Sequence record: MN445185.1
DNA from: Escherichia phage vB_EcoM_EC001
Length of the DNA stretch: 64,000 bases
Direction: 5' to 3' (one strand)
The notes under the pieces: model-generated
Databases searched by the model: none
The model's input: the letters and a program-made list of their open reading frames with translations, nothing else
Told to the model about the DNA's origin: nothing
Shown here: positions 3,963 through 21,625 of the stretch, one piece after another
Layout of the letters: the number at the start of each line of letters is the position of its first letter
How positions within the stretch are numbered: position 1 is the first letter of the stretch
Made by a program: the position numbers and the translations under genes

Positions 3963-6131
3963 ATGTCATACACTCCCGATTTAGTGGCGACCGTGATTCG
4001 GTCGCTCAACCGTAAAAACGCGGTCGCCAAAGCAGTAGACCCCGCTAACGTACGCCTGGTGTCCGTGGCGCATCGTGACGAAAAAACCCTAGACGTCACA
4101 CTGACAGGGGGTCCGGGGTATTCAAGTTACGGTCAAATTACGGCCCAAGTCACGAAGCAAAATATTGCTGATTATTTCGCCAAGGTTAAGTTGGATGCCA
4201 TTCCCACTTGTGCGTCCATCCACGAACTGTTGCCGCATTTAGACACTCTACTAGGGATTACCTTTTTAACCGACGACTTTGAAGACCTGCCTATCACTTG
4301 GACAAACAATGCTGCGCGCGTCACGTTCCAGGCGAAACAGACAAGTCTTATCTGGTACGGCAGCCAAACGCTAGATGTGATAAACGGTGACGTGGATATC
4401 AACACTGTCTACACTGTTACCAATATCATTCTCACGCTAAAGGCTGCGAATAAACAGCAGTGGATTAACTTCTACTCTAATGCAACCAAACGGATCGTGG
4501 ATCTTGATAAAGTCGATGTCAGCGCCCCGATGTCCCCGGAGGATATAGGCCAAACCTCTGCGTATAACAGCGTCGTAGCATTGACCGCTAGACCGGGGAG
4601 CGGGATGTTTGGAACGAAGTATGTGTTCTTCTCACGTAACAAACTCGAGACATATGCAGGCAAAACCACATACGTCCCGGATGATTTCACCGGTAGCCTG
4701 CACGATGCTCTGGCCATCGAGACACTCGGCATTCGGAGCGTTTTTGATGTAAACGAAATTGCTCCTGTAGAGAACCTGGCAGGCGAGTGGCCAAGACAAG
4801 TGCAATTGGCACCCGTAGAGGGTTCGTACAAAGTCATGGGCAACGCCACGTTGAATGTGGCACGCTATCAAGATAACGAGCAAACCCTTAACCTGAACTA
4901 CACAACTACGTCGCAACTTTCGGACAGCTACTGGGCCACAACGTTGATCAACCATGCGGCGTGCGGGCGTTTGTTTGTTAACGTGACCGTAGATGCAGGG
5001 GCTTTCGTTTATCGCGACAGCAACCTGAAACCGACGTTCGTTATCGACGAATTGCCGCAAATTGGCGAGGTGGTTTGGAACTTCGTTAACCGGGGAACCA
5101 TTCTTGGTCGTGGTGGTTCTGGTATGGTCTACTCTATGCCTGCGAACACATCAGCGGACGGAGCTGACGCAATCCACATTAGCGATACCTTCCGTGGCAA
5201 AGTCACCATCGAAAACTACGGCACCATCGCCGGTGGTGGGGGTGGGGGCGACTACTATGCGTTTAGCACCACCAAGATCGGTGGAGCTGGTGGTGCGCCT
5301 CTCGGGCCAGGCGCGGCGGTGCCCAGCGGCACCAATAACCGTAACGGCTTAGCTGGGTCCCGTGACAAAGGCGGTGCTACCCAGTTAGTCGTCGAGCAAT
5401 TTACCGGCTACCAGAGTCGCTACTATGGCGGTCCGGGTGGGGATTGGGGCCAGCCGGGACGATATACAGCGTTCGAGCAATGGAACACCCCGGCTACCGG
5501 CTCGCCAGTCTATGTCTACGGTCGTGAAGACGGGATGTCATGGACTCGCCCTGGGATGGCAGGCGAAGCTGTCGGTGGGAATAAAAGTATCGTCAACTGG
5601 GTATCCGTCGGAACGGTGAAACCGAATGTTACCGACGAGTACCAAGAGTTCCTCGACTACCTCGCAGTTTTAGATGCCAATCGACTGGCCAGTGCGGATG
5701 GGATAGATAAAGTCACCGACCCAACCAAGCCTGTAGTTGTGGAGTTCTTAGGTACGATTATTTCAGGTACGCTGTTCAAAAAGCAAAACATACCCGGCGG
5801 TTTGGTGGGAACACCATACGGCGATGCTATAGCCAATTTACCGAGCACCACATTGTTTGGTATCATGGCACACAGTGTATCTGAGTTTGATATTGTGCAC
5901 GACACTTGGCGTTACAACCGTGCGGTAATGTTCACGCTAAAACCCGCGCCTACCGGGACGATTAACCTCGCTGTGGAACGCAACCGGGTGAAATCGGCTA
6001 CCAGTAGTGCACCGGTGGAGAAGTTCTATGTCGATCGCTTCGTGTATTACGATGCGTATCTCGGTAAGATGATGGAATGTAATCCGTATACCAAATCCGC
6101 CCCTAAACCGTGGGTGCGGCCAAAGAAATAG
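3963..6131 (+). CDS. Putative tail fibre/adhesin-like protein with Gly-rich segment
   Basis: 722 aa; GGGGGGDYY...GGAGGAPLGPGAA glycine-rich region; C-terminal PYTKSAPKPW motif paralogous to the previous gene; followed by terminator 6187..6218. Confidence 0.5.
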   Translation: MSYTPDLVATVIRSLNRKNAVAKAVDPANVRLVSVAHRDEKTLDVTLTGGPGYSSYGQITAQVTKQNIADYFAKVKLDAIPTCASIHELLPHLDTLLGITFLTDDFEDLPITWTNNAARVTFQAKQTSLIWYGSQTLDVINGDVDINTVYTVTNIILTLKAANKQQWINFYSNATKRIVDLDKVDVSAPMSPEDIGQTSAYNSVVALTARPGSGMFGTKYVFFSRNKLETYAGKTTYVPDDFTGSLHDALAIETLGIRSVFDVNEIAPVENLAGEWPRQVQLAPVEGSYKVMGNATLNVARYQDNEQTLNLNYTTTSQLSDSYWATTLINHAACGRLFVNVTVDAGAFVYRDSNLKPTFVIDELPQIGEVVWNFVNRGTILGRGGSGMVYSMPANTSADGADAIHISDTFRGKVTIENYGTIAGGGGGGDYYAFSTTKIGGAGGAPLGPGAAVPSGTNNRNGLAGSRDKGGATQLVVEQFTGYQSRYYGGPGGDWGQPGRYTAFEQWNTPATGSPVYVYGREDGMSWTRPGMAGEAVGGNKSIVNWVSVGTVKPNVTDEYQEFLDYLAVLDANRLASADGIDKVTDPTKPVVVEFLGTIISGTLFKKQNIPGGLVGTPYGDAIANLPSTTLFGIMAHSVSEFDIVHDTWRYNRAVMFTLKPAPTGTINLAVERNRVKSATSSAPVEKFYVDRFVYYDAYLGKMMECNPYTKSAPKPWVRPKK

Positions 6132-6186
6132 TTATCATAATTTAACGAGGAACTTGACGGGGTTAAAGCCTGAGAATAACCCATGC

Positions 6187-6218
6187 CCTCTTCCCCACGG
6201 GGAAGAGGCTTTCTTTTT
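6187..6218 (+). terminator. Intrinsic terminator after 3963..6131
   Basis: CCTCTTCCCC / GGGGAAGAGG stem followed by CTTTCTTTTT. Confidence 0.65.
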
Positions 6219-6245
6219 ATGACCCTATCAACGCAGGAGGTTATC

Positions 6246-6836
6246 GTGGTCGATCGTTGGAGTAAAGAGGGCATTATTCGTGCCAAAGTAAACATCGAAG
6301 CCGGTTACGTTAATAACCCGAAAGATTTGGGCAAAGCAACGAACCGCGGTGTCACTGAACTCACAGCGCGTGAATATGGCTATAAAGGGGATATGCGTGA
6401 CCTGAGCCTAGAAACCGCGTTAGACATTTACAACAAGCTCTGGTGGCAGCGGATGCGCTTAGACCAGATTATGAAAATGAATGTCCTGCTAGCTGACCGG
6501 ATGTTTGATTTCGGCATCAACGCAGGTCGCGGTAACTGTATCAAGTCCCTGCAGCGCATTCTGAACGTATTAAACCGTCAGGGTAAACTGTACGACGACA
6601 TCGAAGCAGATGGCGGTATTGGGCCACGTACGTTAACAGCGTTAGAAGGCTTTATCAAAGCCCGTGGGGAAGAGGGCCTGAATCGACTGATATTCGCTTT
6701 AACCTGTCATCAGGTTGCGTACTACACGGAAATCAGTGAAGGGCGTGAGGATAACGAAGAGTTTACTTACGGCTGGTATGGCCGCGTCTATCAGGAAATG
6801 CCAGACTACGTGGCTAAGTTGGGGATGTGTAAATGA
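6246..6836 (+). CDS. Endolysin, GH108-like muramidase with C-terminal peptidoglycan-binding domain
   Basis: EAGYVNNPKDLGKATNRGVT matches the GH108 N-terminal EGGYVNDP.DPGG.T..G signature; DGGIGPRTL and GWYGRVY match the PG_binding_3 pattern. GTG 6246 follows RBS AGGAGG (6235-6240); track start 6183 and ATG 6219 lie inside the upstream terminator hairpin. Confidence 0.75.
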   Translation: MVDRWSKEGIIRAKVNIEAGYVNNPKDLGKATNRGVTELTAREYGYKGDMRDLSLETALDIYNKLWWQRMRLDQIMKMNVLLADRMFDFGINAGRGNCIKSLQRILNVLNRQGKLYDDIEADGGIGPRTLTALEGFIKARGEEGLNRLIFALTCHQVAYYTEISEGREDNEEFTYGWYGRVYQEMPDYVAKLGMCK

Positions 6837-7124: not shown

Positions 7125-7766
7125 ATGGAAGCACTTAAGTATAAGTTGTTAGAGAAGCCGTGGTTTATTCTCACGGATGATTTCCATTTCGAGTTTACGT
7201 TGCGCAGCCTCTATCGTGAACAGACCGGAATGGATGCGATGGTAGCATTATCAGGTGTACATCCGGATACTCCGTTATGGGTAACGGTGCCGAAAGGATT
7301 TGTAACGGACCTGGCAAGCATTCCAGAAGCGTTACGTCCTATCCTGCATCCGGATGGCCCTTGGGCTGCTGCCGCTTGTGTGCATGATTTGTTTTACCAG
7401 AAACGTTCATCGGTAGGCTTTTACCCTGACACCGTTGAAGGTAATCTATCTCGTGCTTGCGACAAAACATTCGCTGACTTGATGTTCTTACGCATCATGG
7501 AGGCATTAGGCGTTGACACCTTTATTCGTAAGTCCTTCTACCATGCCGTTCACGAGTTTGGTTGGCCGTCCTATGTAGACGATAACTCTAAGGTGGTTTA
7601 TAGCCGGCCGGTAGAAAAGACGTTGTCCTATAATCGCAACTACCTGTTCTTTAGAACGTCGCGTACGTTAGCGATTCCTGAACACGAACGTGTTGACATC
7701 ACTAATGGGCAACCGGTAAACGTGCAGTATTTGAATATCAAACGTGCGTTCCTGACTGCCCCTTAA
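7125..7766 (+). CDS. Hypothetical protein
   Basis: 213 aa ORF with RBS GAGG before ATG; no motif recognised with confidence. Confidence 0.5.
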   Translation: MEALKYKLLEKPWFILTDDFHFEFTLRSLYREQTGMDAMVALSGVHPDTPLWVTVPKGFVTDLASIPEALRPILHPDGPWAAAACVHDLFYQKRSSVGFYPDTVEGNLSRACDKTFADLMFLRIMEALGVDTFIRKSFYHAVHEFGWPSYVDDNSKVVYSRPVEKTLSYNRNYLFFRTSRTLAIPEHERVDITNGQPVNVQYLNIKRAFLTAP

Positions 7767-8370: not shown

Positions 8371-8430
8371 GGTAAATAAAGCCCTTACCCACTCCCCTTA
8401 CGGGAGTGGGTAAGCACTATTTATTTTCTT
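8371..8430. terminator. Bidirectional intrinsic terminator between convergent genes
   Basis: 13-bp stem CTTACCCACTCCC / GGGAGTGGGTAAG (8384-8396, 8402-8414), A-rich upstream and T-rich downstream. Confidence 0.7.
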
Positions 8431-8908
8431 CTAACGGAACAATCGTAACCGGGGTAGGAACTTCGTCAATAAAGCCGCCGCTGCAGCGAAAGAACGTCAT
8501 CCCTTTACCTTCCCCGGTATGCGGGTTCACATCCGAAAAAGAGTAAGTGGGGCCATCGTTTACGGTTTTATTAATACGGTAATAACGCTCACCTGTGGTG
8601 GTGTTAACATTCCCGTCGATTTTGCCAATTGTATCTTTAAACATCATCGGTGACTCAAGTTTGCCACCGTCCCACGTTGCTACCCAGTTTGCACCCACAT
8701 CCATTACTGTTACTGACCGCGGCATCATTTGTAGGTTGTCCAGTACCGGACGGTAGTCTATAAACTTCTCCTGTGTCCCTGTGCATGTATAAATCACCAA
8801 GTCGCGATTCTTTACCGGTGTGCTGCTAAATTGTCCGATGTTGCTTGGTGACTGGACGCAACCGGTCAACAGGCTTATAAACGCGAATACGATAAATAGA
8901 CGTTTCAT
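8417..8908 (-). CDS. Lipoprotein (signal peptide with lipobox LTGC)
   Basis: N-terminus MKRLFIVFAFISLLTGC; isolated minus-strand gene between a bidirectional terminator and a divergent intergenic region. Confidence 0.65.
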   Translation of the reverse strand: MKRLFIVFAFISLLTGCVQSPSNIGQFSSTPVKNRDLVIYTCTGTQEKFIDYRPVLDNLQMMPRSVTVMDVGANWVATWDGGKLESPMMFKDTIGKIDGNVNTTTGERYYRINKTVNDGPTYSFSDVNPHTGEGKGMTFFRCSGGFIDEVPTPVTIVPLEENK

Positions 8909-9032: not shown

Positions 9033-9581
9033 ATGGCAGTCATCTCTGCAAAAGACCAACTCGTCGCGCTGTTTAATGCCGCAAACAGCGGACTGCCTAG
9101 TCCGTTAACTGCTGCTGACGTTACATTCGGCGCTGTTGCTGACTATTCACCAGCTGATTCTGGAGACACTCGCAACTCCAAACTCACCATCACCGCCACC
9201 GCGGAATCCGCTAACTTTACTGGCGAGAAAGAGCTGCATTATACCCGCCTCAATTTATCGGACTTCATCGGTGCGAAAGCAGTGACCGCTGACCAGGCAG
9301 AATGGGATACCGATGAAGAAGTGCTTGCTTTTGTCAACGCAGAACTATTTGGCGACGGTGAAACGGAAGATCCGTTTGCGTTGTCTGAACTCACCATTTC
9401 ACGCGAAGACGGCAGCAGTGGTGAGAAAGTCATCACTGTTATGGTGAAAGAAGGCCACATTAAATTCCAACCTGTCAGCCTTGGAGTTTATACTGTAACG
9501 CAGCCAATCGTTAAAACTGACCTGAGCACCACCAACGGTGAACTGGGCGGATTCGGCGGCGAAGGTCACGCTGGCATGTAA
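9033..9581 (+). CDS. Hypothetical protein
   Basis: RBS AAGGAA; C-terminal TTNGELGGF motif resembles the C-terminus of the 1..634 product. Confidence 0.5.
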   Translation: MAVISAKDQLVALFNAANSGLPSPLTAADVTFGAVADYSPADSGDTRNSKLTITATAESANFTGEKELHYTRLNLSDFIGAKAVTADQAEWDTDEEVLAFVNAELFGDGETEDPFALSELTISREDGSSGEKVITVMVKEGHIKFQPVSLGVYTVTQPIVKTDLSTTNGELGGFGGEGHAGM

Positions 9582-9610: not shown

Positions 9611-9657
9611 ATAAAAGGTACCTACCTCCCTTCGGGGAGGTAGGGCCTTTATTTTCT
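9611..9657. terminator. Bidirectional intrinsic terminator (end of minus-strand operon and of 9033..9581)
   Basis: CCTACCTCCC-TTCG-GGGAGGTAGG hairpin flanked by A-run and T-run. Confidence 0.7.
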
Positions 9658-9661
9658 TTGC

Positions 9662-10333
9662 TTACATGCCGAGTGATTCGGACAATGTTTTTAATCCAGT
9701 GTAATCGCGCTTTTCAGCTAACTCACGGATTTGGCGTTTGTTATCTGCCATTGCTGAGTGCAACACCTGGTCGCGTGCAACAATAGCGGCCAACAACGCT
9801 TTACATTGGTCTACTGTAAACGGACTGTGCTTCGTATTCAGCGTATCGAGCCAGTATTCTGGTGCGGTATCTGCCTGAATGTATTGACCGAGGATGGTAC
9901 GCGACGATTCATCGGCTTGAAAGTGACTACCTTCAAACTCGATATAACCATGACGCTCATCTTCGTAGCGATGGTCAAGTTCCAACAGCATCTTCTGCAC
10001 GTCTTCGTAAATGTAACGTGCGGTAGATTTCAGATTCCCGCGAATTTCGTCGAGGTCAATCTCCAGCACATTAGCAATAAACTCTTTCGTGCGTTTCAAT
10101 GTGAATTTAGCTTCAATCTCCGACATCTCATACAGCTTCATGCGTGCCAGGGCTTCTTTATCAGACATCCCTTCGATGAGATGATAATGGAGCAGAGCGC
10201 AAAAGCCTGTACGGCCCTGATCCTGCGCACCGATTCGTTCCATGAAATTACCGTGACGATCAATCGGCAAATCACGCTGGAAATAACGGGCGCGGATCTC
10301 TTCGTTCGTTAAGCTTTTGTCAGTAACAGACAT
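9662..10333 (-). CDS. Hypothetical protein (last gene of the minus-strand operon)
   Basis: 223 aa ORF ending just before bidirectional terminator 9611..9657; no recognisable motif. Confidence 0.5.
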   Translation of the reverse strand: MSVTDKSLTNEEIRARYFQRDLPIDRHGNFMERIGAQDQGRTGFCALLHYHLIEGMSDKEALARMKLYEMSEIEAKFTLKRTKEFIANVLEIDLDEIRGNLKSTARYIYEDVQKMLLELDHRYEDERHGYIEFEGSHFQADESSRTILGQYIQADTAPEYWLDTLNTKHSPFTVDQCKALLAAIVARDQVLHSAMADNKRQIRELAEKRDYTGLKTLSESLGM

Positions 10334-10875
10334 TCGTCCTCCTCAATCAGGCCAAGTTCTAACAACAAACCGAAGTCCAGCATCTGGAAGTCCTGATCGA
10401 GGTTACCGGCCCACAACAGAGAAATGTTGTGTTGCTCTTCTTCTTCCAACTGCGGGAGCAGGTGTTCTTCGAAGATTTGACGTTCTGTGTAATAAGCGTC
10501 AACCGGGTTATTGGAGCGTAAGTTACGAATACGCATCCGCGGGAAAGACAAGCCCAAAGCCACTAAACTTTCAGGACTGGCTTCATCGATGGAATGACGT
10601 AGCAGTTCGATTTTGTGGCGTGGGTATGCGAGCAGTCGCTTCTCAAAGCCAGGGTTGCGCTTTTCGATTTCCGCGACAGACTCGTGTCCTTTCTCAACGC
10701 AGTAGACCGGGATCATCACATTCAGCCCGTATTTAATCAACAGGCTTTGGATTTCATCAGTGAAGTCTTCCCCTGCCACAATTGCGTGCACATTGTACAG
10801 CTTGCTTTTGCGCAGGAAGCGATCGACCAAGTGCAGTTTACGCTTCGTAAAATTGTGAATCAGTATTGACTTCAT
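10309..10875 (-). CDS. Hypothetical protein
   Basis: Start moved to the internal ATG (MKSILIHNF...) which has GGAG 7 nt upstream; overlaps the upstream rSAM gene by about 38 nt. Confidence 0.5.
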   Translation of the reverse strand: MKSILIHNFTKRKLHLVDRFLRKSKLYNVHAIVAGEDFTDEIQSLLIKYGLNVMIPVYCVEKGHESVAEIEKRNPGFEKRLLAYPRHKIELLRHSIDEASPESLVALGLSFPRMRIRNLRSNNPVDAYYTERQIFEEHLLPQLEEEEQHNISLLWAGNLDQDFQMLDFGLLLELGLIEEDECLLLTKA

Positions 10876-12166
10876 TCTGGGCTCCGTTTTGTAATTTTTC
10901 TGCTTCGGCACGTTGGCGTACACAACGTGAACAATAGCACATGGATTTATCATGCAAATCTGATGCGCGGGTCGTACCAGTTTTCTGATACCAATATTCC
11001 GCCGCCATCAGTTTCGCAGTAGTCCAACCACACTGACGACGCTCGGCGTGATACGCTTTACGGTCTTCCAGTGTACCTTCACCGTTTTCGTACGATGCTG
11101 CTGCGCAGCTACCGCAACTGTGTTTCATCGGACACCCTAAACAGGTTTCTGGGTAGTTGGTGTACTGCGTTTGAATCTCTTCTAACAGCTTACCACCGTC
11201 CAGGCTCACAAACTCACGACCGACCAGTTCTGCTACAGCAGAGCGGGAAGTTACCGTGGACATGAAACGGTTACAACCGTAAATCTTGCGATCAAAGCCG
11301 AGACAGGTCATGTGCGTCAACGTACCGCAGTACGGTTTCAGGCGTTCTGGGTCGAGACGAACAGAGTCGTCATGTAAGAGTTTGTCACGCCAATCCGGGT
11401 CCCAAGTTGCCATAAAGTTCAGGCCATCCGGGATGATGTGCGTAATCGTGTTACGCGGGTTGGTGTGCAGACCCTTCTCAATCCAGTAGTCCATCACGTC
11501 CATCATCTGGTTCGCGATATCCAACGCCATATGGCGCGGCAGGATATCTTCGTACGTTACATTACCAGAAATGGTACCACCGCCGGACATGTCAATTAAC
11601 GATTTCATGCTGGCGGCATAGTGCGGCAATGTATCGATCGTGAACGTCGCCTTTACGCCCAGCTCAGCGATGCCGACACTCTTCAGATAATTGTAACCGC
11701 GTACCGCAGCTTCGTACGACCCTTCACGCGTCGTGGTAAAGATACGATATTTGTCATGGACTTCAGGTAAACCATCGATGGAGACCCCAATAGACAGTTT
11801 GTCTTTCCAGCGCTCGATAATTTCTTTGTTCAGCGGACGGTCCAGAAGTGTACCGTTCGTGGAGATACTGAACATATACGGGCGATTGTGTTCTGCGCAT
11901 AACTTCTCTGCGGTTTCAAAGGCCGCCAAAAGAAGTTTAGGCTGCATGAACGGCTCACCACCAATGATATCGATGATGACTTCAACGTTCGGGATATCTT
12001 TATCGCGCTCGAAACAAGCGTGGATAAAATCAATCACGTCTGCTACTTTGTTGTTACGAGGATATTTACGCTCGTAGCAGTATTCGCAGTCCAGGTTACA
12101 TGACAGGTTAGTCACAACCTGATACGTGCGTGGTGTGTACTGGATTTGCTGTTCGCTGTTACTCAT
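10838..12166 (-). CDS. Radical SAM enzyme with C-terminal Cys-rich (SPASM/twitch-like) auxiliary cluster domain
   Basis: CNLDCEYC (CxxxCxxC) near the N-terminus and GGEP SAM-binding motif; C-terminal clusters CGTLTHMTC, CLGCPMKHSCGSC (Cx2Cx5Cx2C) and CYCSRC. Start overlaps the upstream gene stop (ATGAGTAA). Confidence 0.8.
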   Translation of the reverse strand: MSNSEQQIQYTPRTYQVVTNLSCNLDCEYCYERKYPRNNKVADVIDFIHACFERDKDIPNVEVIIDIIGGEPFMQPKLLLAAFETAEKLCAEHNRPYMFSISTNGTLLDRPLNKEIIERWKDKLSIGVSIDGLPEVHDKYRIFTTTREGSYEAAVRGYNYLKSVGIAELGVKATFTIDTLPHYAASMKSLIDMSGGGTISGNVTYEDILPRHMALDIANQMMDVMDYWIEKGLHTNPRNTITHIIPDGLNFMATWDPDWRDKLLHDDSVRLDPERLKPYCGTLTHMTCLGFDRKIYGCNRFMSTVTSRSAVAELVGREFVSLDGGKLLEEIQTQYTNYPETCLGCPMKHSCGSCAAASYENGEGTLEDRKAYHAERRQCGWTTAKLMAAEYWYQKTGTTRASDLHDKSMCYCSRCVRQRAEAEKLQNGAQNEVNTDSQFYEA

Positions 12167-13073
12167 TGTTCGCCGCCCGTTTACGCTTAGCAGAAATTAC
12201 ACGGTTGATGTAGTTATACGCATCAACGCCGATAGAACGCGCCAGGCGATTACAGCCGACTTCCAATATCTCTGGGGCGTTCTGAATTTGCTCCTGCGTA
12301 CCGTCGGCGTTAAGCCACAGCACTTCACTGCACGTGTTGCACTCGGTATCGAACATTTTACTGATCGCAAGCCCACACTCAGAATCGTTCTGCATGTTAA
12401 GGCGTTCGATATTGTCGAGTATTTTCCAATACCCGTACATGAAGTTCATGACGTGGTCTGGCGATAACGGTTTCGGCATCATCGCATCAAACAGCAACGA
12501 CATACCACCTGGACGGTAATGATAGATTGCTCGGTGCAGCTCGATGAAATCTTCGTACCAGCGTTTATCGCCTAACTGGTCACGCGTCATCACACCCCAG
12601 GTGTAATAGTTGTCCAGCTCGTACAGCACTTCCAGCGCTTCGTGATTACCACCGTTTACAAAGTTCATAAACGGACGTTCCGACTTCTTGTAGCCGTCAA
12701 TGGACACAAAGATAAGGTCGAACTGTTTCAGCAACGGCAGATGTGATTTACGCATCTTTAAACCGTTGGTGTACATGTGATGACGGAGGTTCGGATGAGA
12801 CTCCTTCAACTCGTTCACGAAGTCTTCAATCTTACGCTGCGCTAACAGCGGCTCACCGCCCGTCCAATGAATCTCACCGATATCCGGATTCTTCTCTAAA
12901 ATCGAGAGAATCTCTTCACGTTGAAACTCACGAGAAGTATCTTCTCTATCCATGTAATAAGCCCCTCCACAGAAGCTACAGTCTAAGTTACACTTAGAAG
13001 TTGCGACAACCGACAGAATTGACGGTTTGTCGTACAGTTCAGACGAGATCCTGGATTCTACTTGATCTGTCAT
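12159..13073 (-). CDS. Radical SAM enzyme (second, shorter)
   Basis: CNLDCSFCGG (CxxxCxxC), GGEP motif, and C-terminal cysteines (ECGLAISKMFDTECNTC...GC) suggesting an auxiliary cluster. Confidence 0.75.
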   Translation of the reverse strand: MTDQVESRISSELYDKPSILSVVATSKCNLDCSFCGGAYYMDREDTSREFQREEILSILEKNPDIGEIHWTGGEPLLAQRKIEDFVNELKESHPNLRHHMYTNGLKMRKSHLPLLKQFDLIFVSIDGYKKSERPFMNFVNGGNHEALEVLYELDNYYTWGVMTRDQLGDKRWYEDFIELHRAIYHYRPGGMSLLFDAMMPKPLSPDHVMNFMYGYWKILDNIERLNMQNDSECGLAISKMFDTECNTCSEVLWLNADGTQEQIQNAPEILEVGCNRLARSIGVDAYNYINRVISAKRKRAANNE

Positions 13074-13094
13074 TGCAGGTTGCTCCAGTATTTT

Positions 13095-13982
13095 TTAAAT
13101 ATAATCAATGGCGAATAAAGGATCTTCGTCTACATTAGCGCCAGGCACCAGTAACATCGGGTCGTGATAGGCAGCTAAAATTTTGTTCAGGTCGGCGTGT
13201 CTTTCGTTCAGACGTTTCAAATCGGCCAACGTTACCGAACGACTACGAATCTCAGAAACAGCTTCTGCTTCTTCTTTCGTTAAATCCACCTTCGTTAAGA
13301 GGAAGCTTACCAGCTTACTCAAATCCGCTTCTGTCGCCGGGTAATCCCCATATCGAGTTTGAACCAGGTGTTGCATCCACGGCTTACGAATACGTTTGGT
13401 GATTTCAAAATCGTCAGTCAGCGCATACCAGACAGAACGCTTTTTATCCCACACGAACTTATAGCTATACGCCATCATGTCCGCTAAACGGGTGATGCCG
13501 AGTTCTTTATATCCCTCGATATCGATGTACGGTTCGGTGTCGAAATACGTTTCCGTATCGGCAGGTACCAGTACAAAGTAGTAAGGGAATGAGCCCAGAT
13601 AGTCCGGACTCCACCAACGGCGCGCCATCGGTTTTGCTTCGAGTTCGTCAAACGGTGTAAACATCAGTTCTAAATCGACACTGTTGTTCAGAATCCCTTC
13701 ACTGAAGAAATACTTACCGTCAACCAACACGCCGCGAGAGTTACCATCGCCGTTAAAGATAACGATGGCCTCTGCAACCATATCACGGATCTTAAACGTA
13801 TTTTCTACGGTGTAGTTCTTCTTGTCGGTCAAGAAGCGACCACGAACCTTTGGCCACTCACCAGGAATCTGTGCAATCAGTCTGACTTTGTCAGCGAGGT
13901 GTGCACGCACCGAATCTGGGGAAGATAGATGCAGCGGGTGGTTGAATGTGGTTTTATACGCAAGATGCAAATCGTTTTTCAT
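13095..13982 (-). CDS. Hypothetical protein between the Cys-rich genes and the rSAM genes
   Basis: 295 aa ORF in operon context; no recognisable motif. Confidence 0.55.
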   Translation of the reverse strand: MKNDLHLAYKTTFNHPLHLSSPDSVRAHLADKVRLIAQIPGEWPKVRGRFLTDKKNYTVENTFKIRDMVAEAIVIFNGDGNSRGVLVDGKYFFSEGILNNSVDLELMFTPFDELEAKPMARRWWSPDYLGSFPYYFVLVPADTETYFDTEPYIDIEGYKELGITRLADMMAYSYKFVWDKKRSVWYALTDDFEITKRIRKPWMQHLVQTRYGDYPATEADLSKLVSFLLTKVDLTKEEAEAVSEIRSRSVTLADLKRLNERHADLNKILAAYHDPMLLVPGANVDEDPLFAIDYI

Positions 13983-14004
13983 TTAATACTCCGAACGTTT
14001 TCTG

Positions 14005-14211
14005 TTATCGATTCCCCGCTCCACGGCTACAGCTTCCGCTGCAGGACCAGCTACACCCACCATTACAATTATAGTGAGAAAGCGGTAAGCCAGCCAGGTT
14101 ATTTGTGGTCGACACGGTGCCCTGGTTAGCGATATAGTTGTTTGCCTGTGCGGTTGTAATGTAACCTTCTGCCGTAACGAGACGGTTTCGAATAGTCTTG
14201 AGACTGATCAC
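14005..14211 (-). CDS. Cys-rich small protein, short paralog (precursor-peptide-like)
   Basis: 68 aa. N-terminal MISLKTIRNRL... resembles the other two; core HYNCNGGCSWSCSGSC. Confidence 0.55.
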   Translation of the reverse strand: MISLKTIRNRLVTAEGYITTAQANNYIANQGTVSTTNNLAGLPLSHYNCNGGCSWSCSGSCSRGAGNR

Positions 14212-14226
14212 ATAAGCCTCCGTCAG

Positions 14227-14631
14227 TTAGGAGTTAGGACCTGAACAACCACCAGAGCACGCACCTGAGCAGTTTGCGGAGCAGGATTTACCACAACCCC
14301 CAGAACAGCTGCCTGTGCACGTGCCGCTACAACCACCAGAGCACGAAGAGCTACAGCCCGTGCAGCTGCTGCTACAGCCCGATACACAGTTTGCGGAACA
14401 AGTCGACCCACAACCACCCGTAGCAGACCCAGTACACCCGCCAGAACAACTCGAGCAACTAAAAGAGCATGTGCCACCACAGTCATAGTGCGAACGGCCT
14501 TGACCTGCGAACAAGTCGGCGTTATTCGTAGCTTTATTGCGAATGTAGTTTTGCACATTCGTGGTGTTCTTTAAAGCGTTTGCATCGATCGTGTTTAATC
14601 GGTTATTCAGTTCTTTTAATCCAATTGCCAT
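14227..14631 (-). CDS. Cys/Ser/Gly-rich protein (precursor-peptide-like, about 20 Cys at C-x3-C periodicity)
   Basis: 134 aa. Conserved N-terminal segment MAIGLKELNNRL...; core DCGGTCSFSCSSCSGGC...CSANCSGACSGGCSG. Confidence 0.65.
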   Translation of the reverse strand: MAIGLKELNNRLNTIDANALKNTTNVQNYIRNKATNNADLFAGQGRSHYDCGGTCSFSCSSCSGGCTGSATGGCGSTCSANCVSGCSSSCTGCSSSCSGGCSGTCTGSCSGGCGKSCSANCSGACSGGCSGPNS

Positions 14632-14641: not shown

Positions 14642-15034
14642 TTAGCGACCTGAACAGCCACCGGAGCAGGCTCCGGAACAATTGGAAGAACAAGAGCCCC
14701 CGCAACCACCTGTGCAGTTACCGGTACAGCTACTACTGCAACCACCAGAACAACCAGAGCAACCAGAACAGTTACCGCCACACGTCGAAGAACAGCTACC
14801 GATACAAGAAGCAGAACAGCTTCCTGAACAGCTCGAACAGCCATGCGAGCAACCGTTAGAGCACGTCCAAGAACATGTCCCGCCGCAATCTAGCTGTGCT
14901 TTCGTCCAACCCCCAAATCGGTCTGCCGCATTATGGGCTTTAGAGGCCACTTGCGCGTCGACGCGGGGGCCTGTCGCCATGTTAGCTTCGACTATCTGGA
15001 CGCGGTTTCTGACGTCTTTAATAGATATCGCCAT
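14642..15034 (-). CDS. Cys/Ser/Gly-rich protein (precursor-peptide-like), paralog of 14227..14631
   Basis: 130 aa. MAISIKDVRNRV... N-terminus; core DCGGTCSWTCSNGCSHGC...CSSNCSGACSGGCSG. RBS AAGGAA upstream. Confidence 0.65.
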   Translation of the reverse strand: MAISIKDVRNRVQIVEANMATGPRVDAQVASKAHNAADRFGGWTKAQLDCGGTCSWTCSNGCSHGCSSCSGSCSASCIGSCSSTCGGNCSGCSGCSGGCSSSCTGNCTGGCGGSCSSNCSGACSGGCSGR

Positions 15035-15099: not shown

Positions 15100-16302
15100 T
15101 TACTTAGTACCCGCTTCAGCTTGAACATCGTCGCGCGAGGTGAGGTTGTTGTTGACGTGAACAGCAGCCTGCACAACACCGCCATACTGTTTATGGAGGT
15201 AATTCGGGTGTGGGTTATCCGCAGCCGCATGGTTCGCCAGATTCTGGTTTGCCTGCGAAATTGCGTTGGTGTTGTTTACAACCTGAGTTTTAAGACTGTT
15301 GATTTGTCCTTGCAGGTTATCAATTTGCTGTTGGAAGTCTTTGCCCTGATTCTCAAGATCCGTGACGCGCTGATTTGTTTTATTCAGTGCAGACTGAAGA
15401 TCGTTAACCATCTTCTGTAATTGCAACACCAGAGAATTAAGGTTAGCTAATGCTAACGACATTTTCTGGTAATTTTGAGCAACCACGTTAAGCTGGTCGT
15501 TCCACGCGGCTAACGAAGCCACAATTGCATCGATGCGTTGCCCCAACGCTGTGTCTGCTGCTCTTAAGTCGCCGATATCTTTGATAGTGGCGTCAATGGC
15601 AGTCTGTACACTTTGAATCAGGGCACGAATCTCCGTCTCCGTCAGGCCATTAACCTGATGAATGTCGAGATTGTGTACGTTACCTTCGGCGTTGATGTGG
15701 GTATTTAAGGCGTCGAGGAAGTCGTTTTTCAGACCACCCAGAATACCTTTAATTTCTTCCAGCTGTACTGCAGAGCCGGAGTTAATCGCATCTTTAATCC
15801 CCGCGAGTACGGTAATGATATACTCAAAACCGTAGATATCGCCAAGGTCTTTATACGTCGGGGCGGATGGGAACGTATCGGGTACGTTTCGAAGATCCTT
15901 GAAGTCCACCACGCGGTCTTCAATTTTCAACGACGCAATCGCTTGTCGGATGCCTTCGACGTTCGCGGACTGAAAACCACCAACGACTTGCGCAGAGACT
16001 TCGATATCAGTAGGAATGGCCGAGTTAGTTACCACCACACCCATGACCACTTCGCGGTTCTTGGTCATTTTCTGATATGCAGTATGTGCAAAAATCAGTT
16101 CGTAGTCTGTACCACGTTTGTACGGGTAGACACCTGGTTTATTCGCAGCCGCCAAGCGGAAGGTATCCGCGTAGAAAGCTCCGTCAGGAAATGCAAAAGC
16201 CCGGTTAACTTTACCAGAACCTAACGTAATACGCCGCGTAACGGCGTTCGACGTTAATGTCCCGGTAAGGTCGAGCGGGTACTGATAAATGATTTCGGCC
16301 AT
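15100..16302 (-). CDS. Tail-fibre-like protein with coiled-coil region
   Basis: Start at MAEIIYQYPLDL with AAGGAG upstream (track start 16338 is a 12-codon extension). N-terminal RGTDYEL domain shared with the three large proteins; heptad-like Q/L/N-rich segment. Confidence 0.6.
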   Translation of the reverse strand: MAEIIYQYPLDLTGTLTSNAVTRRITLGSGKVNRAFAFPDGAFYADTFRLAAANKPGVYPYKRGTDYELIFAHTAYQKMTKNREVVMGVVVTNSAIPTDIEVSAQVVGGFQSANVEGIRQAIASLKIEDRVVDFKDLRNVPDTFPSAPTYKDLGDIYGFEYIITVLAGIKDAINSGSAVQLEEIKGILGGLKNDFLDALNTHINAEGNVHNLDIHQVNGLTETEIRALIQSVQTAIDATIKDIGDLRAADTALGQRIDAIVASLAAWNDQLNVVAQNYQKMSLALANLNSLVLQLQKMVNDLQSALNKTNQRVTDLENQGKDFQQQIDNLQGQINSLKTQVVNNTNAISQANQNLANHAAADNPHPNYLHKQYGGVVQAAVHVNNNLTSRDDVQAEAGTK

Positions 16303-16349
16303 TGCCAAACTCCTTTGATTGGGGCTTCCTTGCCCCATAGCGCTATCTG

Positions 16350-19300
16350 TTAGGTACGGAACATAAGATTGACCTGGATAATATCAGGCTGTTGCCATCC
16401 TCTCTCGTTCACCCAATCGTGCGCAATCGTTAACGTAAGATCATCGCCATCCCACGCCACGATCGGTGGTGGGAATAAACCCTGAGCGCCCGTGGTAACA
16501 ACCGGAATTGCACCCGCCACATCCACAAACGTGTAGCTACGGCTGTTCAAAACAACTGGTGTGCCGTAGGTCTCTCCCCCCAATGGTAAGATTTGAATCT
16601 TACTATCCGAAAGATCGGTGGTGATTGGTAGTCCCCCCGCGTCCGTGAAAAGCCAAGAGCAAATATGCTGGTTGGCCATCTCAAGCGCTGGGGAACTCAA
16701 CACAGCAGCGAAAGTAAACGTACATGGCACGCCTGCGGGCAGAGAATGCTGTTTGTGATACACGGTATGTGGTGTCGGCATTAACACTTCTGGATTTTCA
16801 TCAATGTTAACATCCTTACCTTCCGCCTCGACGTTGTAGAGAAATCTATCTACCGTATCCCATGGGGCGATGTTGACATTAAAGGTCGTTTCTACTCCCG
16901 GTGTACCTGGGACGACGAATTTACTTTGTATCACCACTATCATCATTCCTGAGGTCGGAGAGAAAGCAGGCGTAGGGATACCCACCCACTCCATTCCCAA
17001 CGATGCCGCTTCACCGTTCTCATCGGCCGTTACCGTCGCAATTGTTGTAGGATGTTTCCAAAACGCCCCCGACTTGTTTGCCTGAGTAAACGCCGGCAAA
17101 GTTTTCAAGCCTTCGAAACGTTTGGAGACCATCGGTTTACCGCGACGCTGTGCGTCAGATACGGTATAAAGCAACTGACTATCCAGATAGCCTTTCGTAG
17201 CATCGATCGACAAAGGACCCATCGCTTCTTTACGCAATGGTGCCAGTCTGCCCGTTGCCGCATCCCTTCCCACTTCCACATCATGCTTATTCTCAACCGC
17301 CGCATGTTCCAACAGTTGTTTCACCGCACCCAATCGCTTAGCATGTTCGACGTTAGTCTCGACGACTCGCGACGAGCCCGTTTTAACATACCCGATATAG
17401 AGTTCCGTTTCAGTGTCTGGATGTTGAACCACGTCCATTACGTACTTCGGTGTACCATTTTCTACCTTGGCGTGCAGGTAGAATGTCCGGTTCTGATGGT
17501 TTGTTGGAAATGCTGCGCTGAGGTCAATATACCACGTAGGCAGCTTATAAGTGCTCGAGCCGAAACGCAGGTCAACTTCCTCAGTCACATATACCAGCCA
17601 ACCTTCAGCTGTTTCCACACCAGCAATGACGACCGATTCAGTCGGGCCACTAAAATTAGGAGCCGCGACAAAATCTCTCGACGACGTTGCGATACCACCA
17701 CAATAGACGTAGTCGAGAGATGAGTTGTGTAACATCACTTGATCGCGATGTGCCAGATAAGCTGGACTGACTGGAGTGTGTGACGGTGCCATACGTCCAA
17801 CGCCGTGTGCGGCAGAAGAACGCGTCCAAGTACCATTAGACAGCGTAAGACCAACAGCGTAGTTAAGCGCACCCAAGTCGCCAATCAGGCGCAAGGTTAA
17901 CGTGTGTGGAAGATACAACCCGAACTGCGTACCATCTACCGACACCATGGTAGGTTGTCCCGGCCGGCGTGTTTTTCCTCCCGTTATCTCTCCCAACGTA
18001 GCATAGTTCAAGCCATAGTCGAGGTTGTTATAGAAGTCAAACAATGCCAATATCGCTGCCGGGAATGTTACCTGCCCGTTGCTGATTGTTGGTTTCAGTG
18101 TAAAGTAGTAGATATCCAACACGTTAACGTTGTTCACAGTACGCGTACATGCTACTTGTGCTAACGTGAGCGGTGTGGCCGTACCAATGCCGATGAACCA
18201 AACAGAGAACAGTGCCTTTCCTGCGTTATTTGCGGCAAGGATATATTCCGAAGCATAACCATTCGCAGCGCCTGCCGGTGCTCCGTCGATGATCATCTGC
18301 TTCATCTTATTCCATTCAGCTTGTGACAGCGTCAACCGATCGGCATGAATCGTGAAAGTGCCAGAAACGTTGTGGTAAGGGAATGTTTCTGGCCCTGTGC
18401 AATACCAGCCGTTTAACTCTGTACCAGGCGACGCCGGTGTAACAATGTGGCACATCTGCGACAGATTCTCGTACGTGGTAGAATCCACTACACGACGATT
18501 GTTAGTTGGTCCATACCCCACTTTACCTGAGTAAGTGGTGTTCGGATCAAACTCAACCTCAATTGCCAAACGGGAACGTGGCTGTGACAACCAGATAAGT
18601 CTGGAATTCGCTCCCAGAGTCAGTGGATACGCCATACCCAGCTCGTAGATAGAACCACGACCTTGGTTTAACGTTACCGCACTAAACCTTCTGGCAGTGA
18701 AGTTGTAGTCGCACGACAGGTACTCGTACCAACTCACACCGTCGTCTAACGTGGTAATCGTGACAATTGGCATTAGGTCACGATCGCTGGCATGTCCTTG
18801 CGAAACGATATATTTGTCTTGCGATGTTGCAAAGGTTTGGTTATTAGCTTGACCTTCGCCCCACTTCCGGCTCGGAATCCCAATCTCAGCACCACCGTTA
18901 TAACGAACCGCGGTAAGATCAGCCACAATAGGGAATCGATCAGCCCCTTCCAGCGTTACCGTCATTGAACTGCAATCAACAACAAAGCTTGACACCCATT
19001 GTTTAAAGCTAATCGTCTGCCCTGTGCTGGAGGCAAACCAGACTGTTGGCGTTAAACCAACACGAAAGTTCAGCCCATCAACACCAATCGCGTGATTACA
19101 CTCAGGACCATGTACAAAGTTAGTTGCATTGTTCCACTTCGCTAACGCGTCTGCGTAGATCTGTGTAACTGGTGCTGGGAGCGCATCGGAAGGTGCACGT
19201 TTCTGTCCCTGTCGCAGATAAACGTTTTCACCCGACGTTAATATCCCGCCTGTTAACGCATCCGCCACAAACGTGTTGCTACCACCCGGATTAAGTTCGT

Positions 19301-21533
19301 TGAGTGCGATGCTACGCATACTCACGAAATAGTTACCGGAGGTAAGCACCGTACGCAACAGGTAGACACGTTCATTACAAACAATCAAATCGTCTGTAGA
19401 AGCGTTTGGAGCCCACGGTGCTGTCGTTACTGTGCCCGCACCATTACCGTTCTTGTAATCACCCAACACCACTTTAACAACACGATGATGTTTTGCATGG
19501 TCAATCGTCCCATCGAAGATGACCAGGTAGTACGCACCGTCACTGCCTAAGCAGATCATTGCATCGGTACCGGTAATCACAATAGCAACCAGATTCACCC
19601 CAGGATACGCCGACATTCCAGCGGGTCGATAGCGTACGGACGTCTGCTGCATATTTTCCAGCGTATTGCTTGGCGACACATCAGCATAGGCGTAATAGAT
19701 AGCCCAGTCACCTGGTGGATTCCCGTTAGAACCGTTACGGAGCGAGTAAACCTTACCAGACTCGTAACGCGCCAAACCTTTCTGCCAGGTTTGGTTTTTG
19801 GTGTACCCTTCGTAGTTCCCCTGGACAGGTATAGGCAAGAAGTTATTGTTGCCGTACGATGATCCGCCAACGGTCCATGCTGGCAACAACGTAGCAATCT
19901 TGTCGTTCAGTGTACCGATTTTCTGTTCGAGCAAGAAACCCTGGCGGGCAGTAACCATCTTATCTGTTGTGGTGTCAATAGCGTCCCACAGTTTAGCCAA
20001 ACCTGTAACAGACGTGGATGCGTACGGCACGTTATCGAGATCGGCAATGGTGTGGGTGTGCGTTGAGAGTGCCTTGCCTGATAGCACGGTGCGCAACGCA
20101 TTAGTAACCGGTTTCTCCAGCGGTCCGGTATTGTTCATCTTCTCAATACCGAAATCCGACGCGGTTAAGGTTAAATGCATTTGCCCGTTTTCGTCTAACA
20201 CAAACCCTTTACCATTGACCGTATACGTGTCGTCCACATATCCGTCGAGTTTGTTCTTCAAGTCAGTAACAGCTTTTTGGGAAATCGCTGTGGACGCCGC
20301 GGCGGACGCCGAAAGGTTAGTAATCGCAAACAAGCCCTGCACAGTTGTGGTTGCTGCAGGCAGCTCCGCATTCATGTAAACTTTGTTTGTTTCTTTACCA
20401 GAGCCGTAAATCTTCAACGTGTCGCTGGATTTGAAGTAGGCGTTTGCTGGAAGTATCTTCACCGAGGTCAAGTACATCTTAACCATATCCGGTGTAACGA
20501 GATACACGCCGTTATACACAGGTGCAAGCACACCCGCATCATAATCGCCCCATTTGTCACCTGCTTTACCCGAGTGAACCCAAAGCGTGTTCAGACCAGC
20601 GCTGAACTCCGTAGCGATACCCGGTTCGTTGTTATCCTGATCAGCTTTTAATACCAGCGGTTTTGTCGAGGTGATAATGAACTTCTCACCTTTCATGCTG
20701 ATAACGTGACCGGATGTTGTTTGGAACGTAATCGCGTCGTTATTCAGAACACGCATACGGCCCAGTAAATCACCCAGGGTATTATCCAGAAGCATGTCAA
20801 CGTGTTTTTGTTGGATGCCGCTGGTAGACATTAACGTCACTAACTCTGCCAGGGTACGTCCAAACGCCTTGGTCGCATCTACGGCCTTGCCGAGTACCGG
20901 GAGTGCGCCAATGTCACCGCAGGTGTAACCATGTGCATTTTTAATCAGATGGTGTTGATACATTTCGTCATCAAACACCTGCTTACCGTTCTGATAAATC
21001 AAATCGGTAACTTCGGCAAATGCCTCATCCAGTTCGTGGGCACGTTCTAAAATGCCCAGTCGGATATCTTCCAGCGCCTTTACAATCTCATCGCGAAGGA
21101 TGGCTTCTTCGAGATCTTTTGGCGGATCGATTGGTGAAATGATCGGCGGATATTTCATCAACTCAGACCAATCGCAGTTACGCGGGTCTTTCATATCCGT
21201 CTTAACCAGATACTTGCCGATTTCAGAAGCAGGGATGCGATACTGTCGACCAACCGACAACAACTCGTATTCTAGCTCTGTGGCGTTCAGCAGCATTATG
21301 CTGCCGTATATTGCATCGTTCTCAGCCTCGGCTAATTCCTGGAAGTAATGTCCTAAGAAATAATCAAGACCTTCTATTAACTTGCGTTTGGTTCCGGTTG
21401 TTTTATCGGTAACGGTTAACGTTAACCCGATGCGATAGAACGGTGCTTCGACGGGAATGACCGTCGAATAACGGTTCGGGTAAGTAGCGGTACTGAGGGT
21501 ACCGTTAAACTGCGCCGCATCTTCTCTCGGCAT
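16350..21533 (-). CDS. Very large virion protein (tail fibre/tailspike-like), about 1727 aa
   Basis: Start at MPREDAAQ with AGGAG upstream; N-terminal domain paralogous to those of 21629..25759, 25772..29485 and 15100..16302. Confidence 0.7.
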   Translation of the reverse strand: MPREDAAQFNGTLSTATYPNRYSTVIPVEAPFYRIGLTLTVTDKTTGTKRKLIEGLDYFLGHYFQELAEAENDAIYGSIMLLNATELEYELLSVGRQYRIPASEIGKYLVKTDMKDPRNCDWSELMKYPPIISPIDPPKDLEEAILRDEIVKALEDIRLGILERAHELDEAFAEVTDLIYQNGKQVFDDEMYQHHLIKNAHGYTCGDIGALPVLGKAVDATKAFGRTLAELVTLMSTSGIQQKHVDMLLDNTLGDLLGRMRVLNNDAITFQTTSGHVISMKGEKFIITSTKPLVLKADQDNNEPGIATEFSAGLNTLWVHSGKAGDKWGDYDAGVLAPVYNGVYLVTPDMVKMYLTSVKILPANAYFKSSDTLKIYGSGKETNKVYMNAELPAATTTVQGLFAITNLSASAAASTAISQKAVTDLKNKLDGYVDDTYTVNGKGFVLDENGQMHLTLTASDFGIEKMNNTGPLEKPVTNALRTVLSGKALSTHTHTIADLDNVPYASTSVTGLAKLWDAIDTTTDKMVTARQGFLLEQKIGTLNDKIATLLPAWTVGGSSYGNNNFLPIPVQGNYEGYTKNQTWQKGLARYESGKVYSLRNGSNGNPPGDWAIYYAYADVSPSNTLENMQQTSVRYRPAGMSAYPGVNLVAIVITGTDAMICLGSDGAYYLVIFDGTIDHAKHHRVVKVVLGDYKNGNGAGTVTTAPWAPNASTDDLIVCNERVYLLRTVLTSGNYFVSMRSIALNELNPGGSNTFVADALTGGILTSGENVYLRQGQKRAPSDALPAPVTQIYADALAKWNNATNFVHGPECNHAIGVDGLNFRVGLTPTVWFASSTGQTISFKQWVSSFVVDCSSMTVTLEGADRFPIVADLTAVRYNGGAEIGIPSRKWGEGQANNQTFATSQDKYIVSQGHASDRDLMPIVTITTLDDGVSWYEYLSCDYNFTARRFSAVTLNQGRGSIYELGMAYPLTLGANSRLIWLSQPRSRLAIEVEFDPNTTYSGKVGYGPTNNRRVVDSTTYENLSQMCHIVTPASPGTELNGWYCTGPETFPYHNVSGTFTIHADRLTLSQAEWNKMKQMIIDGAPAGAANGYASEYILAANNAGKALFSVWFIGIGTATPLTLAQVACTRTVNNVNVLDIYYFTLKPTISNGQVTFPAAILALFDFYNNLDYGLNYATLGEITGGKTRRPGQPTMVSVDGTQFGLYLPHTLTLRLIGDLGALNYAVGLTLSNGTWTRSSAAHGVGRMAPSHTPVSPAYLAHRDQVMLHNSSLDYVYCGGIATSSRDFVAAPNFSGPTESVVIAGVETAEGWLVYVTEEVDLRFGSSTYKLPTWYIDLSAAFPTNHQNRTFYLHAKVENGTPKYVMDVVQHPDTETELYIGYVKTGSSRVVETNVEHAKRLGAVKQLLEHAAVENKHDVEVGRDAATGRLAPLRKEAMGPLSIDATKGYLDSQLLYTVSDAQRRGKPMVSKRFEGLKTLPAFTQANKSGAFWKHPTTIATVTADENGEAASLGMEWVGIPTPAFSPTSGMMIVVIQSKFVVPGTPGVETTFNVNIAPWDTVDRFLYNVEAEGKDVNIDENPEVLMPTPHTVYHKQHSLPAGVPCTFTFAAVLSSPALEMANQHICSWLFTDAGGLPITTDLSDSKIQILPLGGETYGTPVVLNSRSYTFVDVAGAIPVVTTGAQGLFPPPIVAWDGDDLTLTIAHDWVNERGWQQPDIIQVNLMFRT

Positions 21534-21567
21534 TGCAAACACTCCTAATCTGTAATAAAACGGAGAC

Positions 21568-21625
21568 CGCCCTCCCAATAACGGAAGGGCGGTTTACCTA
21601 CGGACTACCCGCCCGTAGGCAGTCC
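21568..21625 (-). terminator. Hairpin region between two large minus-strand genes (possible attenuator)
   Basis: ACCGCCCT...AGGGCGGT stem (21568-21575, 21589-21596) followed on the minus strand by CTCCGTTTTATTAC. Confidence 0.4.

Follow-up and report, generated by a model that had tools for sequence, protein, structure and literature searches.

What do two adjoining radical S-adenosylmethionine (radical SAM) enzymes act on in a phage genome? The question arises from Escherichia phage vB_EcoM_EC001 (sequence record MN445185.1), of which a stretch of 64,000 nucleotides, hereafter the window, was analyzed. Salmonella jumbo phages of the genus Seoulvirus, among them JN03, SPN3US and SEGD1, share 98-99% identity with the window. 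An earlier note, made from the sequence alone, had reported two radical SAM genes on the minus strand, one encoding 304 aa (12159..13073) and one encoding 442 aa (10838..12166), and both are present in the open reading frame (ORF) listing and in the sequence. We propose that they belong to a four-part system composed of one or more Cys-repeat proteins, an accessory protein of about 250-320 aa, a small twitch-like radical SAM enzyme and a large SPASM radical SAM enzyme, which is likely to cross-link Cys-repeat fiber proteins, probably by thioethers.

Both proteins are radical SAM enzymes. The cluster motif of the 304-aa protein is C28-NLD-C32-SF-C35 and that of the 442-aa protein C23-NLD-C27-EY-C30, with GGEP at residues 72-75 and 69-72, respectively, and matches to the Pfam family Radical_SAM (PF04055) of 58.8 bits and 55.6 bits, against a cut-off of 29.5, place both in the superfamily. 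Because the pair is conserved from 99% identity through ~40-47% in other jumbo phages to ~38% in a Deferribacter prophage, these are not chance ORFs. The tight linkage of the two genes is also real. In the window 8 nt, ATGAGTAA (12159..12166, minus strand; ttactcat on the plus strand), are shared by the stop of the 304-aa gene and the start of the 442-aa gene, as had been noted; the overlap is 11 nt in an Erwinia phage and in phage STsAS, the genes are separated by 4 nt in the Deferribacter prophage, and in the European Nucleotide Archive (ENA) contigs we found a natural 634-aa fusion of the small to the large enzyme (P0098). Stoichiometric co-expression, which the earlier note drew from the overlap, does not follow from it. 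The same note took the near-identical CNLDC motifs as a sign of duplication and divergence. The motif is indeed present in both proteins, but as CNLxCx(Y/F)C it is generic within their branch of the superfamily; aligned over 144 core residues the enzymes are only 26% identical (E 1e-4), which makes them no more alike than any two radical SAM cores and rules out a recent duplication. They are already two distinct families in the Deferribacter prophage and in a 487-kb metagenomic contig.

The candidate substrates are encoded on the same strand as the radical SAM genes, 0.9-2.5 kb upstream of them, by three genes with gaps of 10-22 nt, each preceded by a good Shine-Dalgarno sequence. CysA (14642..15034, minus strand; Shine-Dalgarno AAGGAAG) is 130 aa long and has 21 Cys in Cys-x3 repeats, three of which are x2; it matches phrog_6085 at 1.2e-40. 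CysB (14227..14631, minus strand; 134 aa, 20 Cys) is a paralogue that also matches phrog_6085 and whose N-terminal region resembles that of CysA (E 7e-6), and CysC (14005..14211, minus strand; phrog_6085, 2.7e-24) has 68 aa, four Cys, a GTG start and the C-terminal end CNGGCSWSCSGSCSRGAGNR. In each, an N-terminal region of about 48-49 aa precedes repeats in which Cys recurs at intervals of four, sometimes three, residues, spaced by Ser, Gly or Thr, and these repeat regions contain neither Asp nor Glu. The 18-residue NCBIfam repeat model TIGR04114 scored 18.9 bits (CysA) and 17.1 bits, just below its cut-off of 20.

The reading frame that contains the Cys residues is the one under selection. 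At ~80% DNA identity, CysA differs from its counterparts in the Erwinia phage and STsAS by 14/6/65 and 13/7/71 substitutions at the first, second and third codon positions, respectively, with 62 synonymous to 11 non-synonymous codons in the first comparison and 64 to 13 in the second, and all Cys are kept; for CysC the corresponding substitutions are 5/3/28. This third-position bias, together with the synonymous excess and the invariant Cys, identifies the frame, and the sequence comparison thus argues strongly that the three genes are real. Most of the scanned jumbo relatives, SPN3US-like or from Erwinia, have CysC. A collection of 15 billion proteins contains no exact copy of CysA or CysB, and CysC, the accessory protein p295 and the downstream protein p188 (both described below) go by the name "hypothetical protein" in every source. 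Tryptic peptides of the CysA N-terminal region include VQIVEANMATGPR and VDAQVASK, and the core is free of Lys and Arg.

We then compared this arrangement across viral loci. A scan of IMG/VR with a profile of the large enzyme gave 80 loci (loci from this and other searches are designated here by L numbers), and ORFs that matched the pattern (C-x2-3) at least six times in tandem were counted as Cys-repeat ORFs. Such an ORF occurs in 77 of the 80 loci, the exceptions being L026 and L027, both of which have a short substrate with three Cys in its place, and a fragment of 1.7 kb. Every one of the 121 Cys-repeat ORFs (79 loci, 1.17 Mb) lies on the strand of the radical SAM gene, at a median gap of 1.1 kb and with 111 of them within 3 kb, and the linkage persists down to 24% identity of the enzyme. 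In the whole 64-kb window the pattern is found in CysA and CysB only. The order Cys-repeat protein, accessory protein, small enzyme, large enzyme is the same in the window and in the Deferribacter prophage (L005), and in L087 and in the 487-kb contig (L089) the accessory gene stands between the two radical SAM genes. The fusion P0098 is likewise preceded by a 570-aa Cxxx-repeat protein, with a faint match to PF27846 (tSAM_targ_Cxxx_rpt), and by a 221-aa ORF in the accessory position. A jumbo-phage subclade with L027 and L091 has the radical SAM order reversed (large, then small), and its substrate candidates (L027, 6883..7176; L091, 5696..5986) are 96-97 aa long with three C-terminal Cys in CESCAMGC or GCSGGCSSGC. 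We conclude that CysA, CysB and CysC are very probably the substrates of the radical SAM pair.

The large enzyme (442 aa, SPN3US_0163) had been described as SPASM-like, and this description held. A SPASM domain is recognized by seven Cys in the order C...G...C, gap, CX2CX5CX3C, gap, C, and carries two auxiliary [4Fe-4S] clusters. The 442-aa protein has the block C342-x2-C345-x5-C351-x2-C354 along with C280, C288, C298, C379 and a C-terminal CYCSRC; across 14 homologues, down to 32% identity, C280, C298, C342, C345, C351, C354 and C379 are invariant and C288 is nearly so. These 7-8 conserved Cys lie in a region that aligns with the SPASM domain of CteB. It varies from the signature in that the last spacing is x2 rather than x3, and the Pfam scan returned Radical_SAM and Fer4_12 only, with no SPASM family. 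With a profile of the 14 homologues, the closest solved protein is the thioether-forming CteB (5WGG, 3.2e-36), aligned through the SPASM region. The best curated matches are both peptide maturases, TIGR04115 (125.6 bits, 3e-36, cut-off 350) and PapB (NF047865; 113.6 bits, 1e-32, cut-off 340), and the SCIFF maturase model to which CteB belongs (TIGR03974) gave 53.9 bits against a cut-off of 425, so that the enzyme falls outside all three families as curated. Profile hidden Markov model comparison, the check set beforehand as the one able to overturn a peptide-maturation reading, assigned neither protein of the pair with confidence to a non-peptide radical SAM family.

The relatives of the large enzyme indicate where it belongs. 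The enzymes of the loci at 24-28% identity are genuine TIGR04115 members (385-654 bits); those at 31% identity or above, among them L005, L025, L027 and L028, reach 115-157 bits with either model, TIGR04115 or PapB. We therefore place the 442-aa enzyme, by sequence, in a clade that is sister to the TIGR04115 and PapB maturases and that shares its kind of target with TIGR04115. The resemblance to the TIGR04115 system is extensive. Its substrates, described by TIGR04114, are likewise built of tandem Cys-x3 (and x2) units with much Gly, Ser and Thr; its enzyme is a SPASM radical SAM protein that lacks an N-terminal RiPP recognition element (RRE; RiPP, a peptide synthesized ribosomally and modified post-translationally); its genes are adjacent and co-oriented; and the loci examined lie in tail-fiber blocks. 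A defining feature of that family, a gene next to one for a tandem CXXX-repeat protein, is seen in the window as well. The two nevertheless differ in that the clade of the window adds a twitch-like radical SAM enzyme and an accessory protein, both absent from TIGR04115 loci. The repeats begin with C-x2-3-C-S-W-x-C-S in the clade of the window versus C-x-G-x-C-x-G-L-C in the TIGR04115 system, and Asp plus Glu make up 0.3% of the repeats in the former versus 5% in the latter. The CXXX-repeat system was defined bioinformatically, and a literature search found no experimental paper on it.

Other known systems resemble the pair in part. CteB, which acts on CteA (SCIFF, thermocellin; 5WGG/5WHY), is the closest solved structure for both enzymes, for the large one by profile and for the small one by fold, and the SPASM Cys align. 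However, the 442-aa protein lacks the N-terminal RRE of CteB (~100 residues): its cluster motif already begins at residue 23, and it aligns with CteB only from CteB residue 106 onward. The SCIFF substrate has six Cys in ~45 residues whereas CysA and CysB have about 20 in a regular repeat. PapB, the second-best curated match, is a SPASM enzyme that installs several thioethers on the Cys of repeated C-X3-D/E motifs (PMC9413430). PapB depends on Asp or Glu as the acceptor, and the repeats of CysA, CysB and CysC offer neither; its substrate PapA (freyrasin) is not a phage protein but a short peptide of the secreted type. At the Asp plus Glu content given above, Cys-to-Asp/Glu chemistry of the PapB type is ruled out. 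HxsB and HxsC match the pair in architecture, with a large SPASM and a small non-SPASM radical SAM protein acting on a substrate of short-period repeats. That repeat is His-Xaa-Ser rather than Cys-x3, the context of the window is a phage, no HXS repeat was found in the ORF listing of the neighborhood of the pair, and the scores of the HxsB and HxsC models, 75.1 bits against 370 (4.8e-21) and 45.0 bits against 267.9 (6.2e-12), leave the window's enzymes outside those families.

The small enzyme (304 aa, SPN3US_0164; Fer4_12, 35.1 bits) falls in no curated NCBIfam family, all matches being at or below 53 bits (NF033640, for example, gave 39 bits against a cut-off of 170). Among the IMG/VR relatives of the large enzyme, it is found only in the closer clade. 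Alignment of the small enzymes showed that C28, C32, C35, C245 and C274 are invariant and that there is a third C-terminal Cys, which is either C248 (C-x2-C) or follows a "DG-x4-5" turn; divergent members have C-x11-G-x5-C-x9-C, in which C-x11-G-x5-C is the pattern of a truncated SPASM domain. Such a truncated, or twitch, domain consists of a beta-hairpin and a helix with ~3-4 Cys and one auxiliary cluster. In the AlphaFold2 model (predicted confidence, pLDDT, 84) residues 251-262 form a beta-hairpin, with helices after it, and the best match of the model in the PDB is CteB (5WGG, E 2.4e-11, TM-score 0.61), with viperin, SuiB and anSME close behind. The earlier description of this protein as twitch-like is thus plausible, though unproven, from a three-Cys C-terminal module with a modeled beta-hairpin. 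In L008 and L023 (4530..5450) we also observed a second copy of the small enzyme, 56% identical to that of the window and encoded between CysA and CysB, giving three radical SAM genes there.

The accessory protein, p295 (13095..13982, minus strand; 295 aa, phrog_8030), is encoded between the Cys-repeat genes and the radical SAM genes and is the fourth conserved component of the two-enzyme clade. By profile-profile comparison (probability 97.3%, E 2.5e-11), its homologues include the ORFs in the same position in the Deferribacter prophage, L027 and L028. A profile search of 1.84 billion representatives returned 94 clusters only, and the three distant members whose context was examined all lie beside two radical SAM genes, either between them (L087, L089) or just upstream (L091).

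We considered where the modified protein might act. The module is embedded in a tight minus-strand array, probably one operon with the tail genes, that runs in order gp168, virion structural protein 20, CysA, CysB, CysC, p295, small enzyme, large enzyme, p188 and a DUF4376 protein. The first gene (16350..21578, minus strand) encodes a 1742-aa protein corresponding to SPN3US gp168, which matched no Pfam family and is reported to be a tail protein resembling phiKZ gp131, itself located at the baseplate periphery and possibly on the fibers (PMC5105663). Directly upstream of CysA is the gene for a coiled-coil protein (15100..16338, minus strand) known in SPN3US as virion structural protein 20, which matches phrog_2163 "virion structural protein" at 2.6e-108. 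A gene for an adhesin of the GP38 type, described below, is also only a few kb distant.

In relatives, Cys repeats form the C-terminal end of fiber-like proteins of 278-600 aa, and these domains share with CysA, CysB and CysC the junction motif N-x3-L-x-G-x5-6-(Y/L)-x-C-x2-3-C-S-(W/F)-x-C-S. In the Deferribacter prophage the repeats end a 302-aa protein, two ORFs upstream of which lies a gpJ-like tail gene; in L025 they end a 568-aa protein with a "virion structural protein" PHROG match; in L028 they end a collagen-like protein with tail-fiber PHROG matches; and in L087 they end a 278-aa protein with an additional sequence repeat, which we take to resemble the T4/P2 fiber repeat. The protein of the 487-kb contig (L089, 1463..2386) has the same junction motif and a hydrophobic N-terminal segment, and its last Cys is immediately followed by a Hint/intein-like domain (PF05203, PF14623), which may point to a self-cleaving or ligating step after the repeats. 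In the three TIGR04115 loci that could be annotated, the module lies between baseplate-wedge and tail-fiber genes. In L082 a reverse transcriptase gene (12733..14010; phrog_1423, 9e-76) stands just downstream of a tail-fiber-like gene that follows a TIGR04115 module, and it may belong to a diversity-generating retroelement acting on the same fiber region.

Conservation within CysA is consistent with a structural role. Compared with the Erwinia phage and STsAS, its repeat region is more conserved than its N-terminal region, which is the reverse of a typical RiPP, where the core is less conserved than the leader. Based on this pattern, the gene context and the fiber fusions of the relatives, we lean toward the product of the module being a component of the virion or tail fiber in this phage. 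The earlier note had interpreted the pair as maturases of a peptide. The relationship to peptide maturases supports its general direction, but the three upstream Cys-repeat genes, the 295-aa accessory protein and the tail-fiber context move the reading from a peptide natural product toward modification of a virion protein.

How might such a modification proceed? CysA, CysB and CysC would be produced together with the enzymes. Recognition without an RRE would probably occur through the junction motif, with the accessory protein possibly helping. The large enzyme would then use a 5'-deoxyadenosyl radical and its auxiliary clusters to convert many of the ~20 Cys thiols of each chain into thioethers. 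This step is modeled on CteB and PapB, and by that analogy we consider the chances that the product carries thioether cross-links to be about even. The acceptor carbons could be on neighboring Ser, Thr, Gly or Asn, or possibly on the next Cys, and would not be on Asp or Glu, because the repeats contain none. The small enzyme might install a second kind of link or serve as an obligatory partner. The expected product would be a rigid Cys-repeat rod, resistant to proteases and redox change, in a tail fiber or appendage rather than a diffusible peptide.

Several observations weigh against this proposal. The large enzyme scores below every curated cut-off, and therefore its chemistry cannot be transferred by family membership. 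The acceptor residues of PapB substrates are missing from the repeats. For p295 we detected neither a fold relative nor an RRE. When the N-terminal regions of CysA, CysB and CysC were compared with all ORFs of the window they matched only each other, the coiled-coil protein giving a non-significant E of 0.17. At 68-134 aa the three proteins are short and formally resemble a leader plus core, and the candidate substrates of L027 and L091 adjoin a SNF2 helicase gene and other non-tail genes.

Some of these points would fit a classical RiPP pathway, in which CysA, CysB and CysC would be leader-plus-core precursors that acquire thioether rings, lose the leader and become diffusible or intracellular effectors, for instance against competitors or host defenses. 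The ~48-aa N-terminal region ahead of a Cys-rich C-terminal core has this layout, the nearest families of the large enzyme are all RiPP maturases, and L027 and L091 have small substrates outside a tail context. However, RiPP clusters generally include a leader-removing protease and export or immunity genes, and no protease, transporter or immunity family was present among the proteins scanned at 9662-16338. It also runs counter to this explanation that the core of CysA is better conserved than the supposed leader, that the same repeat domain and junction motif end the long tail-fiber-like proteins of relatives, and that tail genes begin the array. We consider a classical RiPP unlikely, though it is the most serious of the alternatives.

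Metal or Fe-S binding is improbable. Here the repeats would act like a metallothionein or as a reservoir of clusters or sulfur, with no covalent cross-link, either holding a trimeric fiber together through metal or serving the enzymes. A composition of 27% Cys with Gly, Ser and Thr spacers would suit such a role, and the tail-fiber-like protein of L005 has repeated H-x-H motifs, which tail fibers often use to bind metal. Metal binding leaves unexplained, however, why the repeats co-occur and are co-oriented with a relative of SPASM maturases in 77 of 80 loci, and why there is a dedicated accessory protein and a second radical SAM enzyme. Finally, action on a non-protein substrate (a nucleotide, a cofactor or DNA modification) beside incidental Cys-repeat neighbors is very improbable, for although the weak matches of the small enzyme include MoaA, viperin, QueE and NrdG and viperin structures come just behind CteB in the fold search, those matches cover the radical SAM core only and fall well short of their cut-offs, the alignment of the large enzyme with CteB runs through the SPASM domain, and the Cys-repeat linkage extends to distant relatives.

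Cross-linking of Cys-repeat fiber proteins may extend well beyond this phage. It is possible, at somewhat less than even chances, that very different tailed phages use their own radical SAM enzymes to staple a Cys-x3 domain of a tail-fiber protein into a thioether "ladder"; these would include the Salmonella and Erwinia jumbo phages, the megaphage represented by the 487-kb contig, the siphovirus-type Deferribacter prophage and the myovirus-type tail modules with TIGR04115. If so, radical chemistry of the RiPP type would be a building step of the virus particle and the "CXXX-repeat peptide maturase" family would really be a tail-fiber maturase. Known virion cross-links, such as the isopeptide bonds of the HK97 capsid, are autocatalytic; the cross-link proposed here would be one installed in a virion protein by a radical enzyme. 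It would also provide TIGR04115 and its sister group, a widespread radical SAM family known only from databases, with a biological role. SPN3US, PhiEaH2 and CR5 have both radical SAM genes in common, and phiKZ has neither (PMC5105663, supplementary table); the proposal would explain this distribution. Amber mutants of SPN3US have already been isolated, making the system directly testable in that phage.

Part of this picture is already known: the combination of CXXX repeats with a radical SAM enzyme is a system type in NCBIfam, and both genes are annotated as radical SAM. For the identification of the substrates, the sister clade with two radical SAM enzymes and an accessory protein, the natural fusion of the two enzymes and the association with tail fibers, the literature search found no publication, and in full text it found no paper that links phage radical SAM genes to Cys-repeat or tail-fiber proteins. 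Three papers that seemed close to the topic (PMC12801897, PMC7159879 and PMC10288494) proved irrelevant.

Public annotation has obscured the module. We examined four records (SPN3US in GenBank and in RefSeq, STsAS, and Erwinia phage pEa_SNUABM_29). In both SPN3US records, SPN3US_0166 (window 14223..14558, minus strand) is a wrong-frame ORF over CysB, and CysA and CysC are unannotated; the STsAS record has none of the three Cys genes; and the pEa_SNUABM_29 record has the short CysC-type gene right and calls opposite-strand ORFs over the two long ones. The small radical SAM gene is truncated in three of the four, SPN3US_0164 starting at an internal Met and thereby losing the CX3CX2C motif. Because these records miss or mis-frame the two long genes, CysA and CysB are invisible to proteome and structure studies based on the annotation, and so is CysC where it is unannotated. 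In the supplementary tables for SPN3US (PMC5105663), gp163-167 have no proteomic entry.

The array continues downstream of the large enzyme. The gene for p188 (10309..10875, minus strand; phrog_7988) overlaps the 3' end of the large radical SAM gene by 38 nt, and its product has BLASTP matches in 20 related loci. One of these is the distant L006 (E 3.8e-7), and there too the homologue lies directly 3' of the large radical SAM gene. From this recurrence p188 may be a fifth component of the module in jumbo phages. The last gene (9662..10333, minus strand) encodes a protein with a Pfam DUF4376 domain (2.4e-9) and a weak match to phrog_2837 "tail protein", and a strong bidirectional terminator-like hairpin of 10 pairs, seven of them GC (9621..9644), closes the array. 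Convergent with the module is a plus-strand gene for a 182-aa protein with a DUF7941 domain (9033..9581). DUF7941 is also found, with a GP38 phage tail-fiber adhesin domain (9e-19), in a 722-aa protein encoded at 3963..6131 (plus strand), and the domain content suggests that the two genes are likely a receptor-binding gene set adjoining the radical SAM module. The same region encodes an endolysin-like protein with GH108 and PG_binding_3 domains (6183..6836, plus strand), a DUF1353 protein (7125..7766, plus strand) and, on the minus strand (8417..8908), a 163-aa protein with a lipoprotein-type signal, MKRLFIVFAFISLLTGC.

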